Source: Promethearchaeati archaeon SRVP18_Atabeyarchaeia-1 (lineage in GTDB: Archaea; Asgardarchaeota; Atabeyarchaeia; Atabeyarchaeales; Atabeyarchaeaceae). From it: 64,000 nucleotides of DNA. Numbering within the stretch: the first letter of the stretch is position 1; every line of letters starts with the position of its first letter. The position numbers and the translations under genes were made by a program. This document shows, in pieces, positions 23,282 through 48,212 of the stretch. The stretch lies in the NCBI GenBank assembly GCA_037308085.1, contig CP147779.1, positions 416,001-480,000 of the forward strand. Reading direction: 5' to 3'. Below the pieces are notes generated by a model. It had not been told where the DNA came from. It searched no databases and saw only the letters and a program-made list of their open reading frames with translations.

Positions 23282-24466
23282 ATGTATCTGATTGGTGAGG
23301 CTCTCGTAGGCGAGGGAGATGAGCTAGCTCACATCGACCTCGTCATCGGCGACAAGAGTGGACCCGTAGGGCAGGCTTTCGCCAATGGTTTGTCACAGCT
23401 CTCCGCAGGTCACACTCCCGTGCTGGCGGTAATTCGCCCGAATTTACCTTCAAAACCGTTCACTTTGGTAGTTCCAAAGGTGACGGTAAAGGACATGGAA
23501 GAAGCTAACAGAATATTCGGCCCTGCTCAAGCTGCAGTCGCCAAGGCCGTCGCTGACTCCGTCGAGGAAGGGGTATTCCCCAAGGACAGCATAGAGGACT
23601 TGGTTGTTATAGCCTCCGTCTTTGTCTCGACGAAAGCCACCGATTACAGGAAGATCTACCACTACAATTATAGTGCCACAAAACTGGCCTTGAAGAGAGC
23701 ACTAACAGGGTACCCTGGCTTGGACAAGATCATGTATGAGAAAGACAGAGCCAAGCACCCGATAATGGGGTTCAGGGTTCCCAGACTCTGGAGACCGCCC
23801 TACCTCCAGATCGCATTGGACATTCCAGACCTCCAAAGAACACTCAAGATCATTGATGCCGTCCCCACGAGTGACAGAATAATACTTGAGGCCGGCACTC
23901 CGCTGCTCAAGAAGTACGGGACAAACGTCATAAAAGACCTAAGAGAAGTGGCCAAGGACATTTTCATCGTGGCTGATCTCAAGACTCTGGACGTTGGCAA
24001 GGTTGAGGTGGACATCGCATATGACCAGACAGCTGACGCCGTTGTCGCGTCCGGCCTGGCGGCCGCTGTGACCCTTGACGCGTTCATATACGAGGCAAAA
24101 AGGCTCGGCATCTATGCAATGCTGGACATGATGAACGTCGACGATCCAATAAAGAAACTGTCCTCCTTGAAGGAACTGCCCGACATCGTGATACTCCACC
24201 GATCAATAGACGTTGAAAGAGCCGGCGGGGAAGGCGCTTGGAACGTGAAGGAGCTCAAGGACGCCTTCAAAGGAAAGAAGATGCTGGTGGCTGTCGCTGG
24301 CGGAATCACTCCCGATAAAGTCTCAATGGGGTTGAAGCAAGGGGCCGACATACTGATAGTAGGAAGATACATAACACAATCCAAGGATGTCGAACGCGCC
24401 GTAAGAGAGTTCATCGTGAAACTCCCGGAGTCTGAGGTCGATCTACTGCGAGAACATGTTGAGTGA
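23282..24466 (+). CDS. fae-hps: Bifunctional formaldehyde-activating enzyme / hexulose-6-phosphate synthase
   Basis: [27 protein letters not shown], then LQIALD, EAGTPL, ADLKTLD. Confidence 0.93.
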
Positions 24467-24577
24467 TCTCTGAACCGTCTCTCCCCTATTTGGCAGGTCC
24501 ACCATCTCGCTCTTGCCTTTGAACAGCCATAGACCAGCGCAATGCGCTGCCTTTTATTTGGTTGAGAACCCACGCTG

Positions 24578-25042
24578 CTACTTGGGAGAGAACTCCTCCA
24601 CCCACCGTTCTACGGTTTCTCCAGTCTCCTTGTCGACGAGGTGCTCTTTCTTGAAGAATGGCGCCTCGTGTTTATATCTCTCGACGGCCTCCCTGAGAAC
24701 CTTGAATATTTCGTTTCGGTGTGCGCCCGCGACAATGACGTACACCAAGTCGTCACCTGGCTCGAATTCGCCTAAGATGTGGTAGATTCTCACATCAGCA
24801 ATTCCTTCTCCTTTTGCCAACTCGGTGCATATCGTTGACAGCACGGACTCGGCTTTCTCCTCATATGAGTCCACCTCCATCCGCACGACCCTGTGCCCCT
24901 CCAAGCTTCTGCCCCTGACCACACCTATGAAAACCCCAATTCCCCCTGCCAACCGAAATTCTGAGGAATTCCTTACATCCTGCAACACATCTGCAAAGGA
25001 GAGCTCGCCCTTTTTGTAAATGCCAGCGTGCTTCAAACACAA
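24578..25042 (-). CDS. moaE: Molybdopterin synthase large subunit
   Basis: GVFIGVVR, VAGAHR, K.EAPFFKKE. Confidence 0.88.
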   Translation of the reverse strand: MCLKHAGIYKKGELSFADVLQDVRNSSEFRLAGGIGVFIGVVRGRSLEGHRVVRMEVDSYEEKAESVLSTICTELAKGEGIADVRIYHILGEFEPGDDLVYVIVAGAHRNEIFKVLREAVERYKHEAPFFKKEHLVDKETGETVERWVEEFSPK

Positions 25043-25263
25043 ACCCCCTTACGAAACGGGATAGGCACGACGCAGCCTCAGGGCCTTAGCAACCCATGCC
25101 TACATTTGAACGCATACCCTTACTGCTTGTACCTGCCACTTGCAGTCAACTTCGTTAGTGAGCTAGTCAACCCTTTGAGAGCGCTTGAAGGAAATAAACT
25201 CATTCCAAGTTTAGCGATTTTTTTAAATAGGCAGAACTCCTTACACTCGACATGATTTAAAGT

Positions 25264-25438
25264 GCAGGGGTAGCCAAGCCGGTCAAACAAGGTGGTCTGG
25301 ACCCAAGGCGGTGGACTCAAGATCCACTCTCGAAATGAGTGACAACTAGTTCTGGCGTTCTGGATTCACCACGAGAAGGAGTTCGAGGGTTCGAATATCC
25401 CCCTAAAAATGGGATTGGAAGTCCCTCCCCCTGCACCA
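25264..25438 (+). tRNA. tRNA-Leu(CAA) with three BHB introns (25287-25305, 25335-25377, 25396-25421)
   Basis: Removing the inserts gives GCAGGGGTAGCCAAGCCGGTCAAAGGCGGTGGACTCAAGATCCACTCTCGAAGGAGTTCGAGGGTTCGAATCCCTCCCCCTGCACCA; each insert folds as BHB. Confidence 0.92.
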
Positions 25439-25554
25439 TTCTAGCCAAGAGCTGTCGCCTTGGATTGTCAAAGACTCTTGATGAGATAAGGATCCGCGCA
25501 GGTGTCGCTCGCGTGTGCATGCCAACAAAAAGTGAGTGAAAGCCCGTTGTCCGC

Positions 25555-26235
25555 CTAGCCTGATTCCACTACCGTTCCGATCTTGGCTCCACTTACCGCG
25601 GCCAAGAGGTTCTCGGGCTTGAGTCCACTGACCACTATCACCTTGGCGCTCTGGCTCTCCAATATCCTAATGGATTCGGGATCGAGTATGTCGTGCATCC
25701 CTGGCATGTGCGCCTTCTGTGATACTATCTTGTGCAAATCGCTGTAAGTCAATCTATCAATCTTTCTGGCGTCAGGGTTCTTTCTGGGATCCTTATTGTA
25801 GATGCCTTCTTGGTCCGTCGCCTTCACCAAGAACTTTGATTTGACTGATTCCAATACAATCGCTGCAACCGTGTCTGTTGTGATCCCTGGTCTCAGTCCA
25901 CCCATGACGGCTATCTTTCCAGCAGCGAGAAGCGTGCTAACTTCCTCGGTGGTGGAGGGGATGTTGCCGGAACCATATTTCCCCAGCGCACCTGCAAGCA
26001 ACCTAGCGTTTAGCCTCGAGACCAGAATAGCGATTTCATCTTTGTCATTGTCAGACAACCCGATTCCTTCGGCAATTGATATGAACTCCCTAGCCACTTT
26101 ACCTCCTCCCACCACAACCACTACCTCGTGCCCTTTGTCTTTGACTGATCTCAAGGCTTTGGAGTACTGAACAATCCGCTCTGCGTCCAGAGGAGAAGCA
26201 ATCACGGAGCCACCGATCTTGAACACGATCCTCAT
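25555..26235 (-). CDS. pyrH: UMP kinase
   Basis: VFKIGGSV, VVGGGK.AR, GLRPGITTD, GIYNKDPRK. Confidence 0.93.
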   Translation of the reverse strand: MRIVFKIGGSVIASPLDAERIVQYSKALRSVKDKGHEVVVVVGGGKVAREFISIAEGIGLSDNDKDEIAILVSRLNARLLAGALGKYGSGNIPSTTEEVSTLLAAGKIAVMGGLRPGITTDTVAAIVLESVKSKFLVKATDQEGIYNKDPRKNPDARKIDRLTYSDLHKIVSQKAHMPGMHDILDPESIRILESQSAKVIVVSGLKPENLLAAVSGAKIGTVVESG

Positions 26236-26372
26236 TTCATCAACACCGACTGAGAAGTCACTCAAGAAAGTTAATTAACTTGTTTACTAACTGGTATTTG
26301 AATTGTCACTCTGGCAGCGACATTATGCATCGCCCATGAAATGGCAGCCTTAAACCCAGGGGAACGTTCAGA

Positions 26373-27626
26373 ATGTCAAAGTACGATTCATTTGAGAGGT
26401 TTAGACTCGAGAGGGAACTGCAGGCGCTCTCCAATAAGCATGGCTTCCATACAGAACTAATCTCCCTCTACGTTCCTCCAGGAAAGCAGCTGAGTGAAGT
26501 AACCAACAACTTGAAGCAGGAGTATGGAACATCTGCCAACATAAAATCCAAATCCACGCGCCAACACGTGCTGGATGCAATAACAATGATTACGCAGAGG
26601 CTGAAGATGATCAAAGGCGTACCAGAAAACGGCTTGGCAATATTCTGTGGCGCAATTCCTCAAAATGGGCAAGGAAGCGAGAAGATGGAATTGTACTCCA
26701 TAGTGCCTCCAGAACCCGTGCATATATACCTGTACCGATGCGACAGCAAGTTCCACACAGATCCCCTCAAGGACATGCTCAAGGAGCAGGCGACATACGG
26801 CATCATTATCATAGATCGAAGTGAGTCAACCATAGCCAAGCTCACAGGCAAACACCTCGAAATAATCAAGAGATCAACCTCCGGGGTTCCCAGCAAGCAC
26901 ACAGCTGGAGGCCAATCCCAAAGAAGATTTGAGAGGTTGATAGAGCAGGCAGCGCACGAATTCTACAAAAGAGCAGGCGATCACGCAAATGAAATATTCC
27001 TGAACATGCCTAACCTCAAGGGAATCCTGATCGGCGGGGCCGGCCCCTCCAAAGAGAAATTCGCTGAAGGCGGGTACTTGAATTACCAGGTGCAGCAAAA
27101 AATACTGGGCGTAATTGACATAGGCTATTCCGGAGAAGAGGGCATAGAAGAACTGATCGAGAACTCGAGCGACATGCTGAAGGGCGTGCGGTACACCGAA
27201 GAGAAGAAGCTCGTGCAGAGATTCCTAGAGCATCTGGCAAAGGAAACGGGAATTGTTGCCTACGGGGAAAAGGAGGTTAGGGAACTGCTCAACCAGAGCG
27301 CCGTGGATACACTCCTCTTGTCGGAGGCGCTGGACACCATAAGAGTGAAAATTAGCTGCAACAGCTGCGATTACAGGAAAGAGGAAACGATCCGCAGATC
27401 CGACTTGGACCAGATACAGCAAACAACACAGAATTCACTTTGCCCAAAATGCAGCTCTCCAGTGGCCATAGCAGAAATCAAGCCGACCATAGACGACCTC
27501 GGAGAGCTGGCAGAGAAAACCAACGCCAAGGTTGAGATCATATCAACTGAGACTGAGGAAGGCCAAGAGTTGAAAGCCGCATTCGGCGGAGTTGCCGCCA
27601 TCCTGCGGTACAGCGTAAACAGATGA
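26373..27626 (+). CDS. prf1: Peptide chain release factor aRF1
   Basis: TELISLY, NIKS, YRCD, GGQS, FGGVAAILRY. Confidence 0.97.
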   Translation: MSKYDSFERFRLERELQALSNKHGFHTELISLYVPPGKQLSEVTNNLKQEYGTSANIKSKSTRQHVLDAITMITQRLKMIKGVPENGLAIFCGAIPQNGQGSEKMELYSIVPPEPVHIYLYRCDSKFHTDPLKDMLKEQATYGIIIIDRSESTIAKLTGKHLEIIKRSTSGVPSKHTAGGQSQRRFERLIEQAAHEFYKRAGDHANEIFLNMPNLKGILIGGAGPSKEKFAEGGYLNYQVQQKILGVIDIGYSGEEGIEELIENSSDMLKGVRYTEEKKLVQRFLEHLAKETGIVAYGEKEVRELLNQSAVDTLLLSEALDTIRVKISCNSCDYRKEETIRRSDLDQIQQTTQNSLCPKCSSPVAIAEIKPTIDDLGELAEKTNAKVEIISTETEEGQELKAAFGGVAAILRYSVNR

Positions 27627-27674
27627 TCCGCCAGCCTTAGCCGCTCACTAATCACTTTCTTCTGAGGTGATCAA

Positions 27675-30177
27675 ATGGAGGAAAGTTTCAGACCAAGATT
27701 TGAAGAAAAGCATTGGGATCCCAAGATGGAAGAGAACATACTGGAAACTTGGAGAAAGGAGAAGACATACTCCTTCGATACAAGCGGTCGAAAGAAGCCT
27801 TTTTCCATCGACACTCCTCCACCCTATGCTAGTGGACCATGGCACCTTGGCGGGGCTGTCCACTACTCCCAGATCGACATGATAGCACGATGCAAAAGAA
27901 TGGAAGGGCACGAAGTTCTCTTTCCCATGGGCATCGATCGAAACGGATAAACCCTCTCACAACGAGCAGGGTCCCGGAATACCGATCGAAGTCCAAGCGG
28001 AAAAGGAATTTGGAGTCAAGATGAGAGAGACGCCACGAGGCAAATTCCTAGACTTCTGCCGTTCCCTGCTGGACAAGTATGAGGATGACATCCTGTCGAA
28101 CTCAAGAAGGCTAGGGCTAAGCTGCAATTCCTTGGAGCCTAGCGATGTATACAGAACTGATAGCCCCGAGTACCGCAGAATAACCCAGGCAACCTTCATC
28201 CAACTCTGGAAAAAGGGCCTTGTATACGAAGACAAGAGGCCCAACAACTACTGCACAGAATGTGGAACTACAATTGCTGACGCCGAGATCGAGTATAGAG
28301 AAATCCAAACTTCCTTGAGTTACATCAAATTCAGAATCAAGGGATCCGGCAAGGAAATAGTCATTGCAACAACCAGGCCGGAGCTCCTCTGCGCCTGTGG
28401 CTGCATACTCGTTCATCCAGACGATGAGAGGTACGCTGAACTCAGTGAGAGCATAGCTATGGTCCCAGCCTACGGCAGAGAAGTCCCAGTCATCCCCAAT
28501 CCTGCTGCACAGAGGGAATTCGGAACAGGGGCAGCAATGATATGCTCATACGGCGACTACACTGACGTTAGACTGTTCAGGGAGCTCAAGCTGACACCGG
28601 TTGAAGCCATAGACAACACCGGAAGAATGACTGCAGCTGCGGGCGACCTAAGGGGACTCAAAGTAGTAGAAGCACGCAAAACCATTATAGCAAAACTCAA
28701 GGAACAAGGCATCCTCGTGAAGCAGGAAAACACAGTTCACAGGACACCCGTCTGCTGGCGATCAAAGACACCAATCGAATTCATATCGATGTCAGAGCTC
28801 TACCTGAAACAACTCGACTTCATAGATAAGCTTAGAGAAACCGTAGACAACATGAAATTCTACCCGCCTGAAAGCAAGGAAATCCTCGTGAGCTGGATCA
28901 ACTCTGTCAGCGTCGACTGGCCAATAAGCAGACGCCGATTCTACGGCACAGAAGTGCCGCTATGGTACTGCCTCAAATGCGGCAAGCCCGTAACTCCACC
29001 ACCAGGGAAGTACTACCAGCCATGGAAGGATGCGTTCCCCGCCAGCCAGTGCCCACACTGCGCGGGAAAACAGGGATTCAGAGGCGAGGAAAGAACATTC
29101 GACACATGGTTCGACTCAGGCATAAGTGAACTCCAGATAATCCGCTACCTGAGAGACGACGACTTCTTCAAGAAAATGTTCCCATGCTCCATAAGACCTC
29201 AAGGGAAGGACATCGTCAGAACATGGTGCTACTACTCAATCCTGAGAACCTACCAGCTCCTAGGCAAAGCAGCCTTCGAGAGGGTCTGGATAAGCGGACA
29301 CGTCACGGACGACAAAGGAGAGAAAATGTCCAAATCCCGAGGGAACGTAACATGGCCAACCCCACTTCTGGAGAAGTACGGGGCTGATGCACTGAGACTG
29401 TGGGGCTGCCTCGAAGCAGGGCTAGGCAGCGACATAAGATACTCAGAAGCAAGGCTGGCAGGCGCACACAGTTTCATCACGAAGCTGTGGAACATATCAA
29501 AATTCATATCATCATTTCCAATCCCCAACGAGAAAGAATGCGAACTACTACCCGCCGACACTTGGATACTTGGCGCACTGAACCAGACGATAACCGAAAC
29601 CATCAAGGGCTACGACGAACTCGACTTCAACAAGCCGGCAACGAGAATGCGGACGTTCACATGGGACGCATTCGCCTCCCACTACCTAGAAATGGCAAAA
29701 GCCAGAGCCTACAACAAAGGCAAGCCCTTCCCCGAGAACCAGCAAAAGGGAGCGTGGCACACCCTCCACACCTGCCTCGAATCAATCCTAAGAATCCTAG
29801 CACCAATATGCCCCTTCATCACCGACGAAATTCACCGAAGAATATACACACCCAACAAGACCATACACACCCAAGCCTTTCCAAAACCAAGACCCGAAGC
29901 AAAGCCCCACGATGAAAGCCTCACACAACTAATCATAGCAGTGAACGGTGCGATCTGGAAGACCAAGAAGGACGCGAAGCTGTCACTGAACGCCGCAGTC
30001 AAGAGCCTACACCTACCACCAGAGCTAGAACCATTCAAGTCCGACCTGAAAACCATGCACAACGCCGAGAACCTAAACTTCAAGCCCCCCGACGACACCT
30101 CCACAGCGAAATACATATCAGCAAACATAGGCCAAGAAGCCCAGAAGAAAACAGTCTACATCCTGCTTCAAGGATAG
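27675..30177 (+). CDS. valS: Valyl-tRNA synthetase, interrupted by a 31-nt insertion (about 27949-27979)
   Basis: N-part IDTPPP..SG..HLGG; C-part ATTRPELL, DWPISRRRFYG, KMSKS; frames join when 31 nt are removed. Confidence 0.9.
27949..27979 (+). other. Candidate BHB mRNA intron in valS
   Basis: Exon helix TCGATCG/CGATCGA, central CGG/CCG, intron stem ACCCT/AGGGT plus CTC/GAG; excision gives D-R-N-G-L-P-I-E. Confidence 0.7.
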
Positions 30178-30225
30178 GCTTCAACAGATTCTATGTTGCA
30201 GGCCACCATACAAGAAGTGGTTAGT

Positions 30226-30510
30226 GGGTCCGTAGCTCAAGGTGGAAGAGCGCGAGTCTAGCTCCCACCCTTGCGGGGAGTTCAAATAGAGATTAGTGAA
30301 ACGAATGACTTGTCAGAAAAGTCATGCCGTATAACCAGGAAAGGGTGATTGCTTCAACTTCGCGAGATCTGCGCCGTAATCATTTCTATAGAAACCTTAT
30401 GTATCCCAGTTGGTGATCTTGCGATGCCAATGATCTTTCTTGGTGAGATTGTTTTCGACAGGACATTATTCACGATTGACTTGGCAAACTAGGTGCTAGA
30501 TCTGGACTCA
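30226..30510 (+). pseudogene. tRNA-like element (intact 5' half, degenerate or expanded remainder)
   Basis: GGGTCCGTAGCTCAAGGTGGAAGAGCG start; possible acceptor partner TGGACTC-A at 30503-30510; no canonical T-loop. Confidence 0.4.
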
Positions 30511-30658
30511 ACAATCAACTGGACCATAATAGATCTGAAGGGAGAATATCTGACCCGAATAGCTTCGAATTTTGGGGATCCATCCGAGTCCTCAGGTCAG
30601 AGCTACGACGACAGTATATCGCTAGGACCGAGAGATTGGCTGGAAAGGGTGTGGGTGA

Positions 30659-31582
30659 TTGAGGACTAACACAGTCCATCCGAATTTGAGGACTAAGTAC
30701 TTCCTTGCAATTGACACGAAAGAAAAAGCGTATTGGCTCGGATTTCTGTTCGCCGATGGCTGTATCATAAGACACCCCAGAACAATACAGATTCAACTCA
30801 AACTTAGACGAGCCGACGAAGAAACCATTGACAGATTCTGCGAGTGTCTCAGGCTTGAAAAGGGCAAAAAGGATTACGTTCGAGAACGCGAAAAGGATGG
30901 AACAATATCAGAGAAGATCAGAATCAGATTTGCCAGCAGAGAAATGGGAAGGAGTCTCCTAAAGCACGGGTTAGAGTTTCGGAAATCGAAAATCATTGAA
31001 TATCCGAGATTACCCCGTCGACATCTGGAGCTTGCGTTTCTATTGGGATACTATGATGGCGATGGACTGCAGAATACGACAAGAATCAACTCCGGCAGCG
31101 TCCGATTTCTGGAACAGGTCAAGGAGAGATTCAACTTGCCTTACAAAATCCAGTTGAATAAACGCAAAACCGTATTTCATGGCAGAGAGATAGAAGGCAC
31201 AGAGTACTACATGTGCTTGGGCCCTGAGCTGTTCAATGAGATGATGAGAGACTATGCAGGAAGCATGCCTAGGAAACGTTGGTTCCCATGCGATTCAAAG
31301 GAAAAACTGCGCAGGCACCGTGAGGCTTGCACATCCGAAATGACTCAGAGAAGAAGAGGACTGCAGAAGGATTGGAGAGCCATCACGAGGGATAAACTAG
31401 AAAGATTAGTATGGCAAATGCCGTTAGCACATATCGCCATTAGATACAACGTCAGTAATGTGGATGTTATAGCGAAAAAGTGTGAGAAGCTTGGTGTTTC
31501 CAGACCAGAACATGGTTACTGGCAAAGACAATACTGGATAAACCGGAGATCCTTAGGAAAGAGTTCAATACAGAATAAATAG
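30659..31582 (+). CDS. Free-standing LAGLIDADG-like endonuclease
   Basis: AYWLGFLFADGCI and AFLLGYYDGDG motifs; C-terminal HTH-like tail. Confidence 0.85.
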   Translation: MRTNTVHPNLRTKYFLAIDTKEKAYWLGFLFADGCIIRHPRTIQIQLKLRRADEETIDRFCECLRLEKGKKDYVREREKDGTISEKIRIRFASREMGRSLLKHGLEFRKSKIIEYPRLPRRHLELAFLLGYYDGDGLQNTTRINSGSVRFLEQVKERFNLPYKIQLNKRKTVFHGREIEGTEYYMCLGPELFNEMMRDYAGSMPRKRWFPCDSKEKLRRHREACTSEMTQRRRGLQKDWRAITRDKLERLVWQMPLAHIAIRYNVSNVDVIAKKCEKLGVSRPEHGYWQRQYWINRRSLGKSSIQNK

Positions 31583-31828
31583 TTCCCTACTTCGAAGTGA
31601 AGGAAATAATATATCCTCTCCGCGATATTCTCCTTTTTTCCCTCCTTCTTCAATCTCTGCTGAGAATTCTTGATTCCCTGCAACCCCATTTACGAACATC
31701 ACTACTAGGTATTTCAAAACTTCAATTCTGTCCCAGATAACCCCTGGTCATGGCTAAGGTTTCTGTAATCTGAAGAGGGAGTTGAAGGATACACCTTATA
31801 TACATGTTTTTGGCAACTCATCTAACGC

Positions 31829-32042
31829 GGGTCCGTAGCTCAAAGCGAAGACATCAAGGTGCGTCTTCACTGGCAAAGCTTGGCTAGAGCGTTCGGCTGA
31901 ACATCAAGAGCAACTGGAAGAGATGGGCCAATAACCGAAAAGGGAAGGCTCAGTCAGGAGAAGCCTGCCGTAGGGAAAGATCGCGAGTCCGAAACTCGCC
32001 AGGGGGAAACCCCACCGAGCGGATGTCTCGCCGGACCCACCA
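31829..32042 (+). tRNA. tRNA-Ile(GAU) with four introns (31843-31877, 31901-31931, ~31940-31977, 31994-32025)
   Basis: Spliced 78 nt GGGTCCGTAGCTCAGCTTGGCTAGAGCGTTCGGCTGATAACCGAAAGATCGCGAGTCCGAATCTCGCCGGACCCACCA; three inserts show BHB folds, the third is weak. Confidence 0.85.
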
Positions 32043-32067: not shown

Positions 32068-32144
32068 GGGCCGGTAGCGCAGGCTGGAAGTGCGCCGGCT
32101 TCGCAAGCCGGAGGTCGTGGGTTCAAATCCCACCCGGTCCACCA
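32068..32144 (+). tRNA. tRNA-Ala(CGC), intronless
   Basis: Cloverleaf, CCGGC-TT-CGC-AA-GCCGG, G3:U70, encoded CCA. Confidence 0.95.
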
Positions 32145-32446: not shown

Positions 32447-32809
32447 TAATATAAACTCCCATGAAACCGGTTGATCCTGCCGGACCCAACCGCTATCGGA
32501 GTGGGACTAAGCCATGCTAGTCGAGCGCCTCGGACTATGGCGAGGCGCGGCGTACGGCTCAGTAACACGTGGTTAACCTAACCTCCGGACGGGGATACCT
32601 CCGGGAAACTGGAGCTAATACCCGATAGGTGAATAGTTCTGGAATGGCTTTTCACCCAAACGGCTTTGACACCATGTTTGCCAACGTCGCCAGAGGATGG
32701 GACCGCGGCCGATTAGGCTGTTGGTGGGGTAACGGCTCACCAAACCGACAATCGGTACGGGCCGTGAGAGCGGTAGCCCGGAGATGGGGACTGAGACAAG
32801 GCCCCAGGT

Positions 32810-32846
<37 letters not shown>

Positions 32847-32985
32847 TGGAAACAGCGACGGGGCTACTCCGAGTGCCGTCCGCTAAGGGCGGCTTTTCCA
32901 CAGTATAAAAAGCTGTGGGAATAAGGGGAGGGCAAGGCTGGTGCCAGCCGCCGCGGTAAAACCAGCTCCTCGAGTGGTTGGGATG

Positions 32986-33016
<31 letters not shown>

Positions 33017-33198
33017 TTGTAAGTCCTTGGCTAAATCCGTCAGCCTAACTGACGGCGTGCTGAGGATACTGCTTGGCTTGGGGGCGAGAGAGGCTGAGGG
33101 TACTACTGGGGTAGGGGTGAAATCCTATAATCCCAGTAGGACCACCTGTGGCGAAGGCGTTCAGCTGGAGCGCGCCCGACGGTGAGGGACGAAAGCTA

Positions 33199-33232
<34 letters not shown>

Positions 33233-33333
33233 TAGCTGTAAACTATGCGGGCTAGGTGTTGGAGCGGCCACGTGCTGCTCCAGTGCCGAAGGGAAGCCGT
33301 TAAGCCCGCCGCCTGGGGAGTACGGCCGCAAGG

Positions 33334-33375
<42 letters not shown>

Positions 33376-33481
33376 AAGCCTGCGGTTTAATTGGACTCAA
33401 CGCCGGGAAACTTACCGGGGGCGACAGCAGAATGAAGGCCAGGTTGACGACCTTGCTTGACAAGCTGAGAGGTGGTGCATG

Positions 33482-34392
33482 AGGCCTTCAGGTCGTCCTA
33501 AAACTCTTCGCGGCTTCCTCTAACCTCTCTACGATGTGACTCATAGTCGTCTCTGTAGGAAGGCTGTTGACAAGTGTTGGCGAGGGAGTTCAAATGAACT
33601 CGCTTGTGCCTTTCTTAGGAGGGGATCATGACGATCGTTGACGACAAGAGGAAGTATGTTCTGGTCAAAACGAAGAGTCTTATCCGTCGTCTGCGCCAAC
33701 AAGACTGTGGGGCTCTGCAAGGAGTATACAGGCACGTTGATGACTTGGTTGAGTGGAATACCTTTCGAGACTGGGCGTATAGAGGCTGCTTCCGGATGCC
33801 TCTCAACGTGTTCGCAAGGTTGAAGAAGACATATGAGATCAAGGACGTGCCGCGAGTGGTCACAGAGACTCAATGGTACGCAGAGACACGCAAGAGAGCA
33901 GCAAGAATAATGCACGAACGCCACCCCCATAAGGAGTGGCTATCGCGAGCAGCGAAGGCTGGCGGTGAAGCTGTAAAAGCCAAGTACGGGATCAGGTATC
34001 TGACAAAACTCTCTGGATCTGCCATACATTCATCAGCCAGATACCGATACAAGGATGGATATGGAATAGAATACCGTAGCCGCCTGGAACTGCGGGTTGC
34101 GGATTTGCTGCGCAAACATGGATACAAATTCGATTATGAACCGGAGATAGATGGATACATCCCTGACTTCCTAATCAACCACACAATAATCGAGGTTAGC
34201 GGATACTTTCGCGACCACGATTATCTTTCAAGACTCCAGATCAAACTTGCAGACCTAACCACTAAGGGTTGGGATATCATCGTTGTATGTGAACCGCGAA
34301 ACAAAGCTGCTCTCCAGCAGGCGCTCGTAGGAATACGAGTCAAGGCAATTATGACAACGGATGAGTTCGGACGATGGCTGTAGGTCTGCGAA
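33482..34392 (+). mobile_element. 911-nt BHB intron in 16S (about E. coli 1057/1058) carrying an ORF
   Basis: Central helix TGCA/TGCG, bulges TGA and AAG; excision restores GGTGCATGGCCGTCG. Confidence 0.9.
33628..34383 (+). CDS. Intron-encoded PD-(D/E)xK-like endonuclease
   Basis: C-terminal YRS.LE..VA..L...G....YEP....YIPDF....IIEVSG; basic N-terminal half. Confidence 0.7.
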   Translation: MTIVDDKRKYVLVKTKSLIRRLRQQDCGALQGVYRHVDDLVEWNTFRDWAYRGCFRMPLNVFARLKKTYEIKDVPRVVTETQWYAETRKRAARIMHERHPHKEWLSRAAKAGGEAVKAKYGIRYLTKLSGSAIHSSARYRYKDGYGIEYRSRLELRVADLLRKHGYKFDYEPEIDGYIPDFLINHTIIEVSGYFRDHDYLSRLQIKLADLTTKGWDIIVVCEPRNKAALQQALVGIRVKAIMTTDEFGRWL

Positions 34393-34849
34393 GCCGTCGT
34401 CAGTTCGTGCCGTGAGGTGTCCTGTCAAGTCAGGCAACGAACGAGACCCCTGCTTACAGTTGCTACCAGGCTTAGAAATGGGTCTGAGCACACTGTAGGG
34501 ACTGCCGGCGATAAGCTGGAGGAAGGAGGGGGCCACGGCAGGTCAGTATGCCCCGAATCCCCCGGGCCACACGCGGGCTGCAATGGTTGGGACAATGGGT
34601 TCCGACCCCGAAAGGGGAAGGTAATCCCGAAACCCAATCTCAGTTGGGATCGAGGGCTGCAACTCGCCCTCGTGAACATGGAATCCCTAGTAATCGCGCG
34701 TCATCATCGCGCGGTGAATACTGTCCCTGCTCCTTGCACACATCGTGTCTAGGAAGCGCTTAGCGCGAGTGTAGACCGCCCGTCGCTCCACCCGAGTCGG
34801 GTTAGGGTGAGACGTAGCCTTTTTGGCCACGTCGAACCCAGGCTCGGCA

Positions 34850-34880
<31 letters not shown>

Positions 34881-35341
34881 AGACTCCGTAGGGGATGCTT
34901 GTGATTGTGATGGGGTGGCATCCGCCTTTTGCTTTGTATGCAACGACTTTGTTGCGGCTTGAGGTGTTCTCGTAGGTTCCGTGTTGCGCGTCTGATGTGT
35001 TTGGGATGCGTTTCCGAGGTTTCGTTTGTCTCCTTGGAGTCCGGTAAGGGGAACCTGCGGCTGGATCACCTCCTATGAATCCCCACCCGTTAGGGTGGGG
35101 TTCTTCCGCCGCGATTGTTGCCGAGGGGTTGGCTTACATGATTGTTGTGGGGTTTCGAGCCCGCCTACCTGCTTCTCACTGCTCATTTTGTTTTCCTGGT
35201 TATCCGATTAGCCATGTTATTGTCTAGCATTTGCTTTCTCTTTTCTGGATGGCTTCGGATTCGGAAAGCTGGGCGTGTTACTGTAGTTGGTGACCTTTAA
35301 TGTCATCATCCATGACTAGATGATTGTGAGCTACGAACTCC

Positions 35342-38866: not shown

Positions 38867-42207
<3,341 letters not shown>

Positions 42208-42641
42208 TGAAATTCCTTGGTTCGGGTGAAATTGGGTTTCTGGGGACGTTCTGGGGGTGGAGCCTAGTGCACGGCTGTTGCCGCTTCCGTTTTCTGCAGT
42301 TGCCTCTCTTGAGTACGTGTGACCATATTTCTCAACAGAGATTCCTGTCTGAGAGGAACCAGATTTACTCGAACAGTTTTCCTTGGCGCTCGAGAGTTTG
42401 GATTTACCGCACTGTGTCAGAGAGGGGGGAGAGAGTGTGTAACGGGGAAGCGCGTTCATCCACACTGATGTCAGGGTGGCTGGATGCATGAGAAGTACGG
42501 CGGTAACCACAACCCATCTTGATGGTGCTCTGCTTGAACTCTCCATCCTTGGCGCCAAATGAGAATATTCGAAAAGTATATCTGGTTGGTGCTCCAATAC
42601 CGCTTCTTGATTTGATGATATGGTGATGGAGGGAATGGTCT

Positions 42642-44801: not shown

Positions 44802-45209
44802 GAGTCAGGATGTGGGAGCGCGGCTGCCGGTACCTTTCTTGCTCCTTTGGGGAAGATAGGCGCTGAGGAAGGTCTCCCCTCCACCAGACAGCGGTGCAGC
44901 GAAAGCTGCGGGGTGAGAGCCTCGCTCCAGGATCAGAAACGACACGTCCACGTGCGGAATGACCATGATGCGGTTGAGAAGACGCCTCTGGGTGTTTTCG
45001 AGCAGGGTCTTGGTAACATGGCCCAGTAACCCGTTGAGGATGCATGTGGGATCGTTGAAACGGCCTGCCACTGCGGAGAAAGCCCAAATAGGCTGTGGAT
45101 GATGAGTCTGGCTGAACCAGCGGGTAGGGTGAGTAGCTGAATGCCGCAAAGGGTGCTTCGGCGACGGGGCACCTGGAACAAAAGGGGGCCTACTACCCAC
45201 ACCTGGCTC
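44802..45209 (+). ncRNA. rnpB: RNase P RNA
   Basis: GAGGAAGGTCTCCCCTCC (CR-I), CAGAAAC, TTGAAACGGC, TGAATG, AACAAAAGGGGGCCTA (CR-V); terminal pairing GAGTCAGG..TGTGGG/CCCACA-CCTGGCTC. Confidence 0.88.
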
Positions 45210-47981: not shown

Positions 47982-48137
47982 TTGCCACAGATTGTGATCT
48001 GACAATTCAGATTGGTTACTCTTATATCTTTCTACGGATCGATACTGTGCCCCAGTGTTCTGAAAGATGTCTAGAAGAACCCGCTTCGACTGCGTCAGCC
48101 TCGCTCTCCCTCAGCGCCTACAGATGGAGTAGTTAAG

Positions 48138-48212
48138 TGGACCGGGTGGGATTTGAACCCACGACCTCCGGCTTGCAAAGCCGGCGCGACTTCCAGCCTG
48201 CGCTACCGGCCC
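48138..48212 (-). tRNA. tRNA-Ala(UGC), intronless
   Basis: Near-identical to the Ala(CGC) gene; anticodon TGC. Confidence 0.95.

Follow-up and report, generated by a model that had tools for sequence, protein, structure and literature searches.

How can an organism produce valyl-tRNA synthetase (ValRS) when its only gene for this enzyme is broken by a stop codon? The question is raised by valS of Promethearchaeati archaeon SRVP18_Atabeyarchaeia-1, which lies in a stretch of 64,000 nucleotides (nt) that was analysed at full length (contig CP147779.1, positions 416,001 to 480,000; hereafter the window, from whose first letter all plain positions are counted). The chromosome that encloses the window is complete and comprises 2,808,651 bp, and the nearest named relative of the organism is Candidatus Atabeyarchaeum deiterrae (Atabeyarchaeia-2, CP147780). 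Judged from comparisons of sequence, an insert within valS is real, ancient, selectively maintained and removed of necessity at two exact positions. We consider it very probable that this insert, 27949-27979, is an archaeal intron of the tRNA type with a relaxed motif of bulge-helix-bulge (BHB) form and is spliced out of the message of the sole valS gene by EndA and RtcB.

The interrupted valS gene and its junction codon

The first frame of valS reads ...EVLFPMGIDRNG (FPMGIDRNG) and then meets the stop codon TAA at 27948-27950. The second frame reads (G)IPIEVQAEKEFGVKM... ((G)IPIEVQAEK), stays open until 30177 and contains no ATG, GTG or TTG before 28021. An unspliced mRNA would encode a fragment of 91 amino acids (aa) only. 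An earlier note on this DNA, written from its letters alone, had described a 31-nt insert between these two frames, and its coordinates agree with both the sequence and the minimum-free-energy fold. When the 31 nt are removed, ValRS of Odinarchaeum is colinear with both pieces without any insertion or deletion, and the two halves abut exactly at 73|74 of the Pfam tRNA-synt_1 profile. The predicted spliced ValRS has 823 aa (~95 kDa). Excision of 27949-27979 yields GGA-TTA-CCG, which encodes G-L-P; the predicted spliced junction is ...AACGGAU|UACCGAUC, in which ...CGAAACGGAU ending at 27948 is joined to UACCGAUCGAAG... starting at 27980. A second valS, for which the earlier note had advised to look, is absent from the genome, where the other matches are class I synthetase paralogs of 523-1044 aa with 21-33% identity.

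The insert was found at the identical codon position in 18 distinct lineages, represented by the genomes G000, G001 and G002, three contigs recovered from JGI metagenomes with a degenerate DNA pattern, and 12 further contigs. Its presence as DNA in 18 independent assemblies rules out the assembly error for which the earlier note had allowed. Alignment with valS of relatives showed the insert kept at the same site: among 40 relatives, the open frame at this place is short only in the other two genomes of the family, where an insert of 31 nt likewise occupies this position but its hairpin differs in sequence, and the remaining valS matches lie in open frames of ~750-870 aa. A protein search limited to lengths of 50-160 aa in a collection of 5.8 billion proteins returned 16 clusters of N-terminal pieces of 91-98 aa, all of which terminate in ...PMGIDRNG followed by up to seven read-through residues; the DNA was retrieved for 12 of these clusters. 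No protein longer than 160 aa in this collection matched the N-terminal piece with more than 70% identity, which indicates that every sampled member of the clade has the split gene and that the collection lacks both close relatives without the intron and spliced cDNAs in assembled form. Most lineages (14) have an insert of 31 nt, three have one of 30 nt and a single lineage has one of 29 nt; the interior is 32-59% identical between deep lineages with conserved boundaries. A fixed position combined with variable length and interior sequence is the behaviour of a BHB intron.

The gene shows no sign of the decay that the earlier note had set against its own reading. The spliced coding sequences are open across all available length, nonsynonymous divergence (dN) is 0.13-0.16 with saturated synonymous divergence (dS), and dN/dS amounts to 0.05-0.15 in both pieces. 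Since the synonymous sites are saturated, the dependence of valS on removal of the insert predates the divergence of the sampled lineages. Exon 2 opens with 14 codons that vary at synonymous third positions only; they are therefore translated, in spite of lying in a frame that lacks a start codon of its own.

The positions of the predicted cuts were derived from the junction codon. A single codon between glycine (GGA) and proline (CCG) can be built in four ways, two of which yield stop codons. When nucleotide 27948 is combined with 27980 and 27981, the codon is TTA, TTG, CTG, CTC or CTA and hence leucine in all 18 lineages. This junction, which the earlier note had predicted by cutting after the second nucleotide of ATA and of AAT, is the sole one with a conserved residue in every lineage. 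Nucleotide 27948 is T or C only and 27980 is always T; at nucleotide 27981, the 12 lineages with T27948 have A or G throughout and the six with C27948 have A, G or C, a covariation that matches the expectation for a split leucine codon. At the corresponding site, 91 intron-less orthologs have GLP (79), GVP (8), GIP (2) or GMP (2). The coding evidence pins the predicted exon ends at 27948 and 27980, and cuts that follow the second bulge base on either strand would give a functional product.

Directly before valS, in the same orientation, is the gene for the release factor eRF1 (26373-27626), and this neighbourhood is maintained in intron-bearing metagenome contigs. Among the sequencing runs listed for the locus, none was recorded as RNA, and no contig from four metatranscriptome runs of the same studies was placed on 24000-32000, which is uninformative about expression. 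The idea of a mobile element was dropped, as the genome contains no further copy of the intron.

The relaxed bulge-helix-bulge motif and the probable splicing machinery

The region 27925-27998 folds with a minimum free energy of -29.4 kcal/mol (z = -4.3), and none of 200 shuffled sequences was as stable. In this fold, the hairpin, the exon-exon helix TCGATCG/CGATCGA and the CGG/CCG pairs proposed in the earlier note were all recovered. The exon helix h begins at 27940/27983 and comprises 7+5 bp, and the intron helix h' begins at 27950/27973 and comprises 6-8 bp; A27950 stands opposite C27973 in this genome, and in 15 of 18 relatives an A-U pair is found at this place. Bulges of 3 nt lie on opposite strands, so that geometry and bulge placement are those of a BHB. 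Over the 18 sequences, the whole structure is paired in 95% of cells and its covariation score was reached by none of 500 shuffles. Compensatory changes were observed at four of the six intron-stem pairs, whereas helix h is paired in 99.5% of cells with G-C to G-U as the sole changes. An alignment of six sequences alone gave no significant covariation; significance was obtained with the 18 sequences.

The exon part of the structure coincides with a restraint on the code. Seven of 11 codons around the junction are codon-invariant, in comparison to 17% gene-wide (P = 7e-4), and only three of 349 windows equalled this suppression of synonymous change, which is attributed to the exon half of the motif having to encode protein as well. 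The codons for I-D-R and P-I-E are near-palindromic, and owing to this ~8.5 of the 12 exon-exon pairs exist already in intron-less orthologs; all 12 pairs are formed in none of 84. The exon complementarity is thus in part a by-product of coding, and the site was predisposed to host such an intron. The fold nevertheless exceeds what chance would produce. The chance of the motif at a fixed boundary was roughly estimated as ~3e-4, obtained by multiplying the values for the central helix (0.15), the intron stem (0.03) and the exon helix (0.06), of which the last was taken from the orthologs and allows for complementarity produced by coding.

The probable course of events can be outlined. In the pre-mRNA, the flanking exon sequences would pair as helix h and the intron would fold as hairpin h'. 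A short central helix of one A·G and three G-C pairs would set the bulges AUA and AAU on opposite strands, where an EndA made of two paralogs would cut after the second bulge base, at 27948/27949 and 27979/27980. The exons would subsequently be ligated by RtcB, which yields the leucine codon U|UA in the conserved D-R-N-G-L-P motif of the 823-aa ValRS.

The genome encodes the machinery for these steps, namely two genes with the EndA family PF01974 and one intact gene with the RtcB family PF01139, and we infer that cutting and joining are performed by EndA and RtcB. The best matches of the 209-aa EndA are the PDB chains 3p1z_B and 3ajv_B (E = 5e-46), which we take to be the catalytic subunit of the EndA heterotetramer of Aeropyrum pernix. 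By our reading, this protein retains the catalytic Tyr/His/Lys residues, and the 241-aa paralog is divergent and lacks the catalytic His. The divergent paralog has a long N-terminal extension of low complexity that is rich in E, K and P and contains the near-repeat PVPQEPEAFITGSSVV / PVPQKPKAFFTGSSVV. Such a two-paralog EndA would fit the crenarchaeal-like (alpha-beta)2 type. The (alpha-beta)2 enzymes of broad specificity are reported to cut relaxed motifs, that of cbf5 included (PMC10485636; PMC2738675).

Other interrupted genes of the genome

The earlier note had suggested that other broken genes of the organism be scanned for BHB motifs, and such genes were found. A genome scan that started from BHB motifs with perfect score followed by rescue of open reading frames (ORFs) was abandoned: it returned 1556 real matches versus 1551 in the mirror-image control. 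Adjacent genes on the same strand swamp the signal in such a scan, and a homology census was used instead, based on tblastn with the ORFs of Odinarchaeum yellowstonii and naming by Pfam. The census is partial and its counts are lower bounds. At least seven further short inserts of 19-41 nt were located in protein genes, i.e. in cbf5, pcm, glyA, gatE, ahcY and, twice, a gene for a RuBisCO-like protein (Table 1). Cutting after the second bulge base restores the conserved motifs in pcm, cbf5, glyA, gatE, ahcY and one of the RuBisCO-like inserts, each of which has four of four central pairs; almost without exception, the bulges of these further inserts start with A. Two census junctions outside the window, near 980298 and 938452, showed no convincing BHB, and local scans at the presumed positions in rpl39e, RIO2 and EndoQ recovered no intron with the filter used.

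Including valS, the partial census amounts to at least eight inserts in seven protein genes, and the true number is probably several-fold higher. On balance we favour the view that Atabeyarchaeia routinely splice mRNAs with their tRNA-splicing machinery and that valS belongs to a genome-wide set of BHB introns, several of them in housekeeping genes. In the complete genomes of Atabeyarchaeia, 92-95% of the tRNA genes have introns, often several and at non-canonical positions; introns in mRNAs are not mentioned in that study (PMC11291895).

Within the window, ARAGORN and Rfam detected two tRNA genes only, Ala-CGC (32068-32144) and Ala-UGC (48137-48212). The Rfam match to 16S rRNA (32464-34889) covers 2,426 nt with a model of 1,478 positions, that to 23S rRNA (38867-42208) 3,342 nt with a model of 2,987 positions, and that to RNase P RNA (44808-45204) 397 nt with a model of 288 positions. 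The excess length suggests intervening sequences in the 16S, 23S and RNase P RNA genes, too. The distance from 16S to 23S is ~4 kb.

Table 1 Features of valS, its candidate intron, further interrupted genes and EndA genes (plain positions refer to the window, those with an L number to the respective locus)
Feature	Position	Strand	Description
valS exon 1	27675..27948	+	91 codons and first base of Leu codon; HIGH-type motif WHLGGA; Pfam tRNA-synt_1 profile 2-73
Intervening sequence, candidate BHB intron	27949..27979	+	31 nt; unspliced frame halts at TAA 27948-50; site occupied in 18 lineages
valS exon 2	27980..30177	+	starts with TA (last two bases of Leu codon), ends at stop codon; Pfam tRNA-synt_1 profile 74-413 and Anticodon_1
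Exon-exon helix h, 5' strand	27928..27940	+	27928-32 with 27991-95, 27934-40 with 27983-89
Exon-exon helix h, 3' strand	27983..27995	+	minimum-free-energy fold, pairing in 18 sequences
Central helix, exon strand ACGG	27943..27946	+	pairs with 27974-77; CGG 27944-46/CCG 27974-76 and A27943·G27977 mismatch
Central helix, intron strand CCGG	27974..27977	+	minimum-free-energy fold, 18 sequences
5' bulge AUA (ACA in 6 lineages)	27947..27949	+	predicted cut after 27948; covariation of junction codon
Intron hairpin h'	27950..27973	+	stem 27951-58/27964-72, loop ACAAC
3' bulge AAU	27978..27980	+	predicted cut after 27979; within 3x6 internal loop with A27941-43
pcm insert	L194:605-632		28 nt; central pairs 4/4; junction GQTISAP^HMV
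cbf5 insert	L195:599-639		41 nt; central pairs 4/4; junction GHGGTL^DPRVTG
SHMT/glyA insert	L196:518-555		38 nt; central pairs 4/4; motif restored
gatE insert	L197:669-709		41 nt; central pairs 4/4 (12/12 pairs scored); motif restored
RuBisCO-like large subunit, insert 1	L198:560-587	-	28 nt; central pairs 4/4; junction GSGGG^IHAHP
RuBisCO-like large subunit, probable insert 2	L198:883-901	-	19 nt; central pairs 3/4; probable
ahcY insert	L199:1227-1260		34 nt; central pairs 4/4; from perfect-score scan
EndA paralogs	L120:1474-2103 and L121:1084-1809	- and +	PF01974

Alternatives, known systems and implications

In our own scoring, the valS motif is the least canonical one when compared with the inserts of pcm, cbf5, glyA, gatE, the RuBisCO-like gene and ahcY, and several of its features weigh against splicing by EndA. 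The central helix lacks the four base pairs of the canonical motif and consists of A·G and three G-C pairs in 17 of the 18 lineages; the mismatch A27943·G27977 is invariant, and two more mismatches (A·A and A·C) precede helix h. With three of four central pairs the motif belongs to the relaxed class as defined elsewhere (bioRxiv 10.64898/2026.10.13.758758), which bears out the label chosen in the earlier note, and many boundaries are known to show relaxed motifs of this kind merely through chance (bioRxiv 10.64898/2026.10.13.758758). One base away, the register CGGA/UCCG with the bulges UAA and GAA (27944-27950/27973-27979) has four Watson-Crick pairs in 14 of the 18 lineages and was chosen by RNAfold in the five other sequences folded. 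Finally, the GGA codon before the insert and the GGA at its end are also compatible with translational bypass. The earlier note had raised neither the shifted register nor the bypass. The shifted register was rejected as the productive site, given that its use removes 2 nt fewer and leaves an in-frame TAA or breaks the frame in every lineage. The endonuclease would thus have to pick the productive over the better-paired register; both G27977 and A27947 are invariant though they seem free to vary.

A relaxed motif with a better-paired register, which would mislead an EndA guided purely by structure, invites the thought that the exact excision at 27948/27979 is the work of another agent, either a different nuclease and ligase or a self-processing RNA, and that the BHB-like shape is incidental. 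The reported ability of (alpha-beta)2 EndA to cut relaxed motifs including cbf5 (PMC10485636; PMC2738675) speaks against this explanation, as does the size of 31 nt, which is far below that of group I or group II introns. We regard such an agent as improbable, since the cuts fall on the symmetric BHB positions after the second bulge base and at least seven other inserts in protein genes of the same genome obey this rule, six of them with four of four central pairs.

In the bypass of phage T4 gene 60, a GGA take-off codon is followed by a stop codon, the gap contains a hairpin and landing occurs at another GGA. A comparable event in valS would involve no RNA cutting: the peptidyl-tRNA-Gly would leave GGA 27945-27947 at the stop, skip the hairpin, re-pair with GGA 27976-27978 and continue with AUA-CCG, giving G-I-P. 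The two codons are GGA/GGA in 17 of the 18 lineages, the remaining one having GGA/GGG; in 12 of 18, the take-off codon precedes UAA with the hairpin just downstream, and the invariant G27977, which spoils the central helix of the BHB, creates the landing GGA. The bypassed reading of nucleotides 27979-27981 would, however, deliver I in five lineages, M in four, L in seven and F in two, as opposed to leucine throughout at the splice junction, and phenylalanine occupies that position in none of the 91 orthologs. Unlike in gene 60, the gap varies in length and there is no stop after the take-off codon in six of the 18 lineages, which have CAA instead; a stop combined with a coherent protein is not found throughout. 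Bypass would leave nucleotide 27948 free to vary, but the only bases found there are T and C, and they covary with 27981. Under the constraints of a BHB, in which G27976 pairs with C27944 and the bulge usually begins with A in the introns of this genome, the GGA match needs one free base only (G27977), a coincidence of about 1 in 4. Matched codons were not seen at other introns inspected (e.g. gatE and pcm). We know of no report of bypassing in archaea, which also counts against it, and we consider bypass in valS very unlikely.

That the pieces are never rejoined, with valS being a pseudogene, a source of two polypeptides (the 91-aa N-terminal piece and a C-terminal piece from ATG 28021) or read by a frameshift through the insert, is hardly credible: gene callers annotate two ORFs and split aminoacyl-tRNA synthetases exist in other organisms, but this is the sole valS of the genome, both pieces have a low dN/dS, conservation covers the 14 codons that separate the junction from the ATG at which the C-terminal piece could first start, the G-L-P motif would be lost, and neither the RNA structure nor the suppression of synonymous change would be accounted for. 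Inserts of 31, 30 and 29 nt impose offsets of +1, 0 and +2, and stops interrupt the +1 frame in four of the 14 inserts of 31 nt, so that no single frameshift would serve all lineages. On these comparisons, pseudogene, separate subunits, frameshifting and assembly error can be taken as excluded.

Splicing by EndA and RtcB, the explanation preferred here, has few precedents in archaeal mRNAs. In the literature searched, splicing of the tRNA-intron type was found for the mRNAs of cbf5 and one Haloferax transcript only, and introns in mRNA were described neither for Asgard archaea nor for valS. Besides cbf5, no other protein gene had been confirmed by 2009 (Yokobori 2009; PMC2738675), and a review of 2023 names cbf5 and HVO_1309 as archaeal genes whose mRNA is spliced via the tRNA endonuclease and expects more (PMC10485636). 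The cbf5 intron of Crenarchaeota (Aeropyrum, Sulfolobales, Desulfurococcales; PMC2738675) is likewise a short, clade-restricted intron of the BHB type with a relaxed motif in a coding sequence; its hosts have a hetero-oligomeric EndA of the (alpha-beta)2 type, and the unspliced mRNA is out of frame. In contrast to crenarchaeal cbf5, valS encodes an essential aminoacyl-tRNA synthetase in an Asgard phylum, its splicing is predicted, and its putative intron is one of at least eight inserts in a genome whose own cbf5 carries another.

The intron of HVO_1309 reportedly lies in the 5' untranslated region, with no reading frame dependent on it. Like the valS candidate, the HVO_1309 mRNA of Haloferax volcanii is an mRNA substrate of EndA (Schwarz 2020, PMC7714728; PMC10485636); the endonuclease of this organism differs in being of the alpha2 type (PMC10485636). 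The introns in tRNA and rRNA genes of Atabeyarchaeia and Freyarchaeia are closer, as they occur in the same organism and are presumably processed by the same enzymes. They resemble the valS insert as short hairpins without ORF, with a motif built half from exon sequence and frequently relaxed (PMC11291895; bioRxiv 10.64898/2026.10.13.758758). The valS insert differs from them in its mRNA host, where the exon half of the motif also codes. Among eukaryotes, HAC1 and XBP1 mRNAs are cleaved by IRE1 on twin stem-loops and ligated by RtcB or Trl1 in a stress-regulated manner, and the XBP1 intron has 26 nt. With valS they would share independence from the spliceosome, a very short frame-changing intron and joining by a tRNA ligase. 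The nuclease is IRE1 and not EndA acting on a BHB, and no regulation is indicated for valS.

If Atabeyarchaeia do splice mRNAs routinely in this way, a prokaryote closely related to eukaryotes would depend on EndA and RtcB to express core enzymes of translation and metabolism, and the supply of ValRS may be coupled to the capacity for maturation of heavily interrupted tRNAs. Both the host gene and the lineage would be new, with a single-copy aminoacyl-tRNA synthetase of an Asgard archaeon dependent on the exact removal of a mini-intron. Standard annotation labels such genes as broken or 'partial', which would bias Asgard proteomes and estimates of genome completeness. The valS gene would offer a natural test case for the way in which the correct register of a relaxed BHB motif is recognised. 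The RtcB-type splicing of frame-shifting mini-introns known from XBP1 and HAC1 would gain an equivalent among the archaea to which eukaryotes are related.

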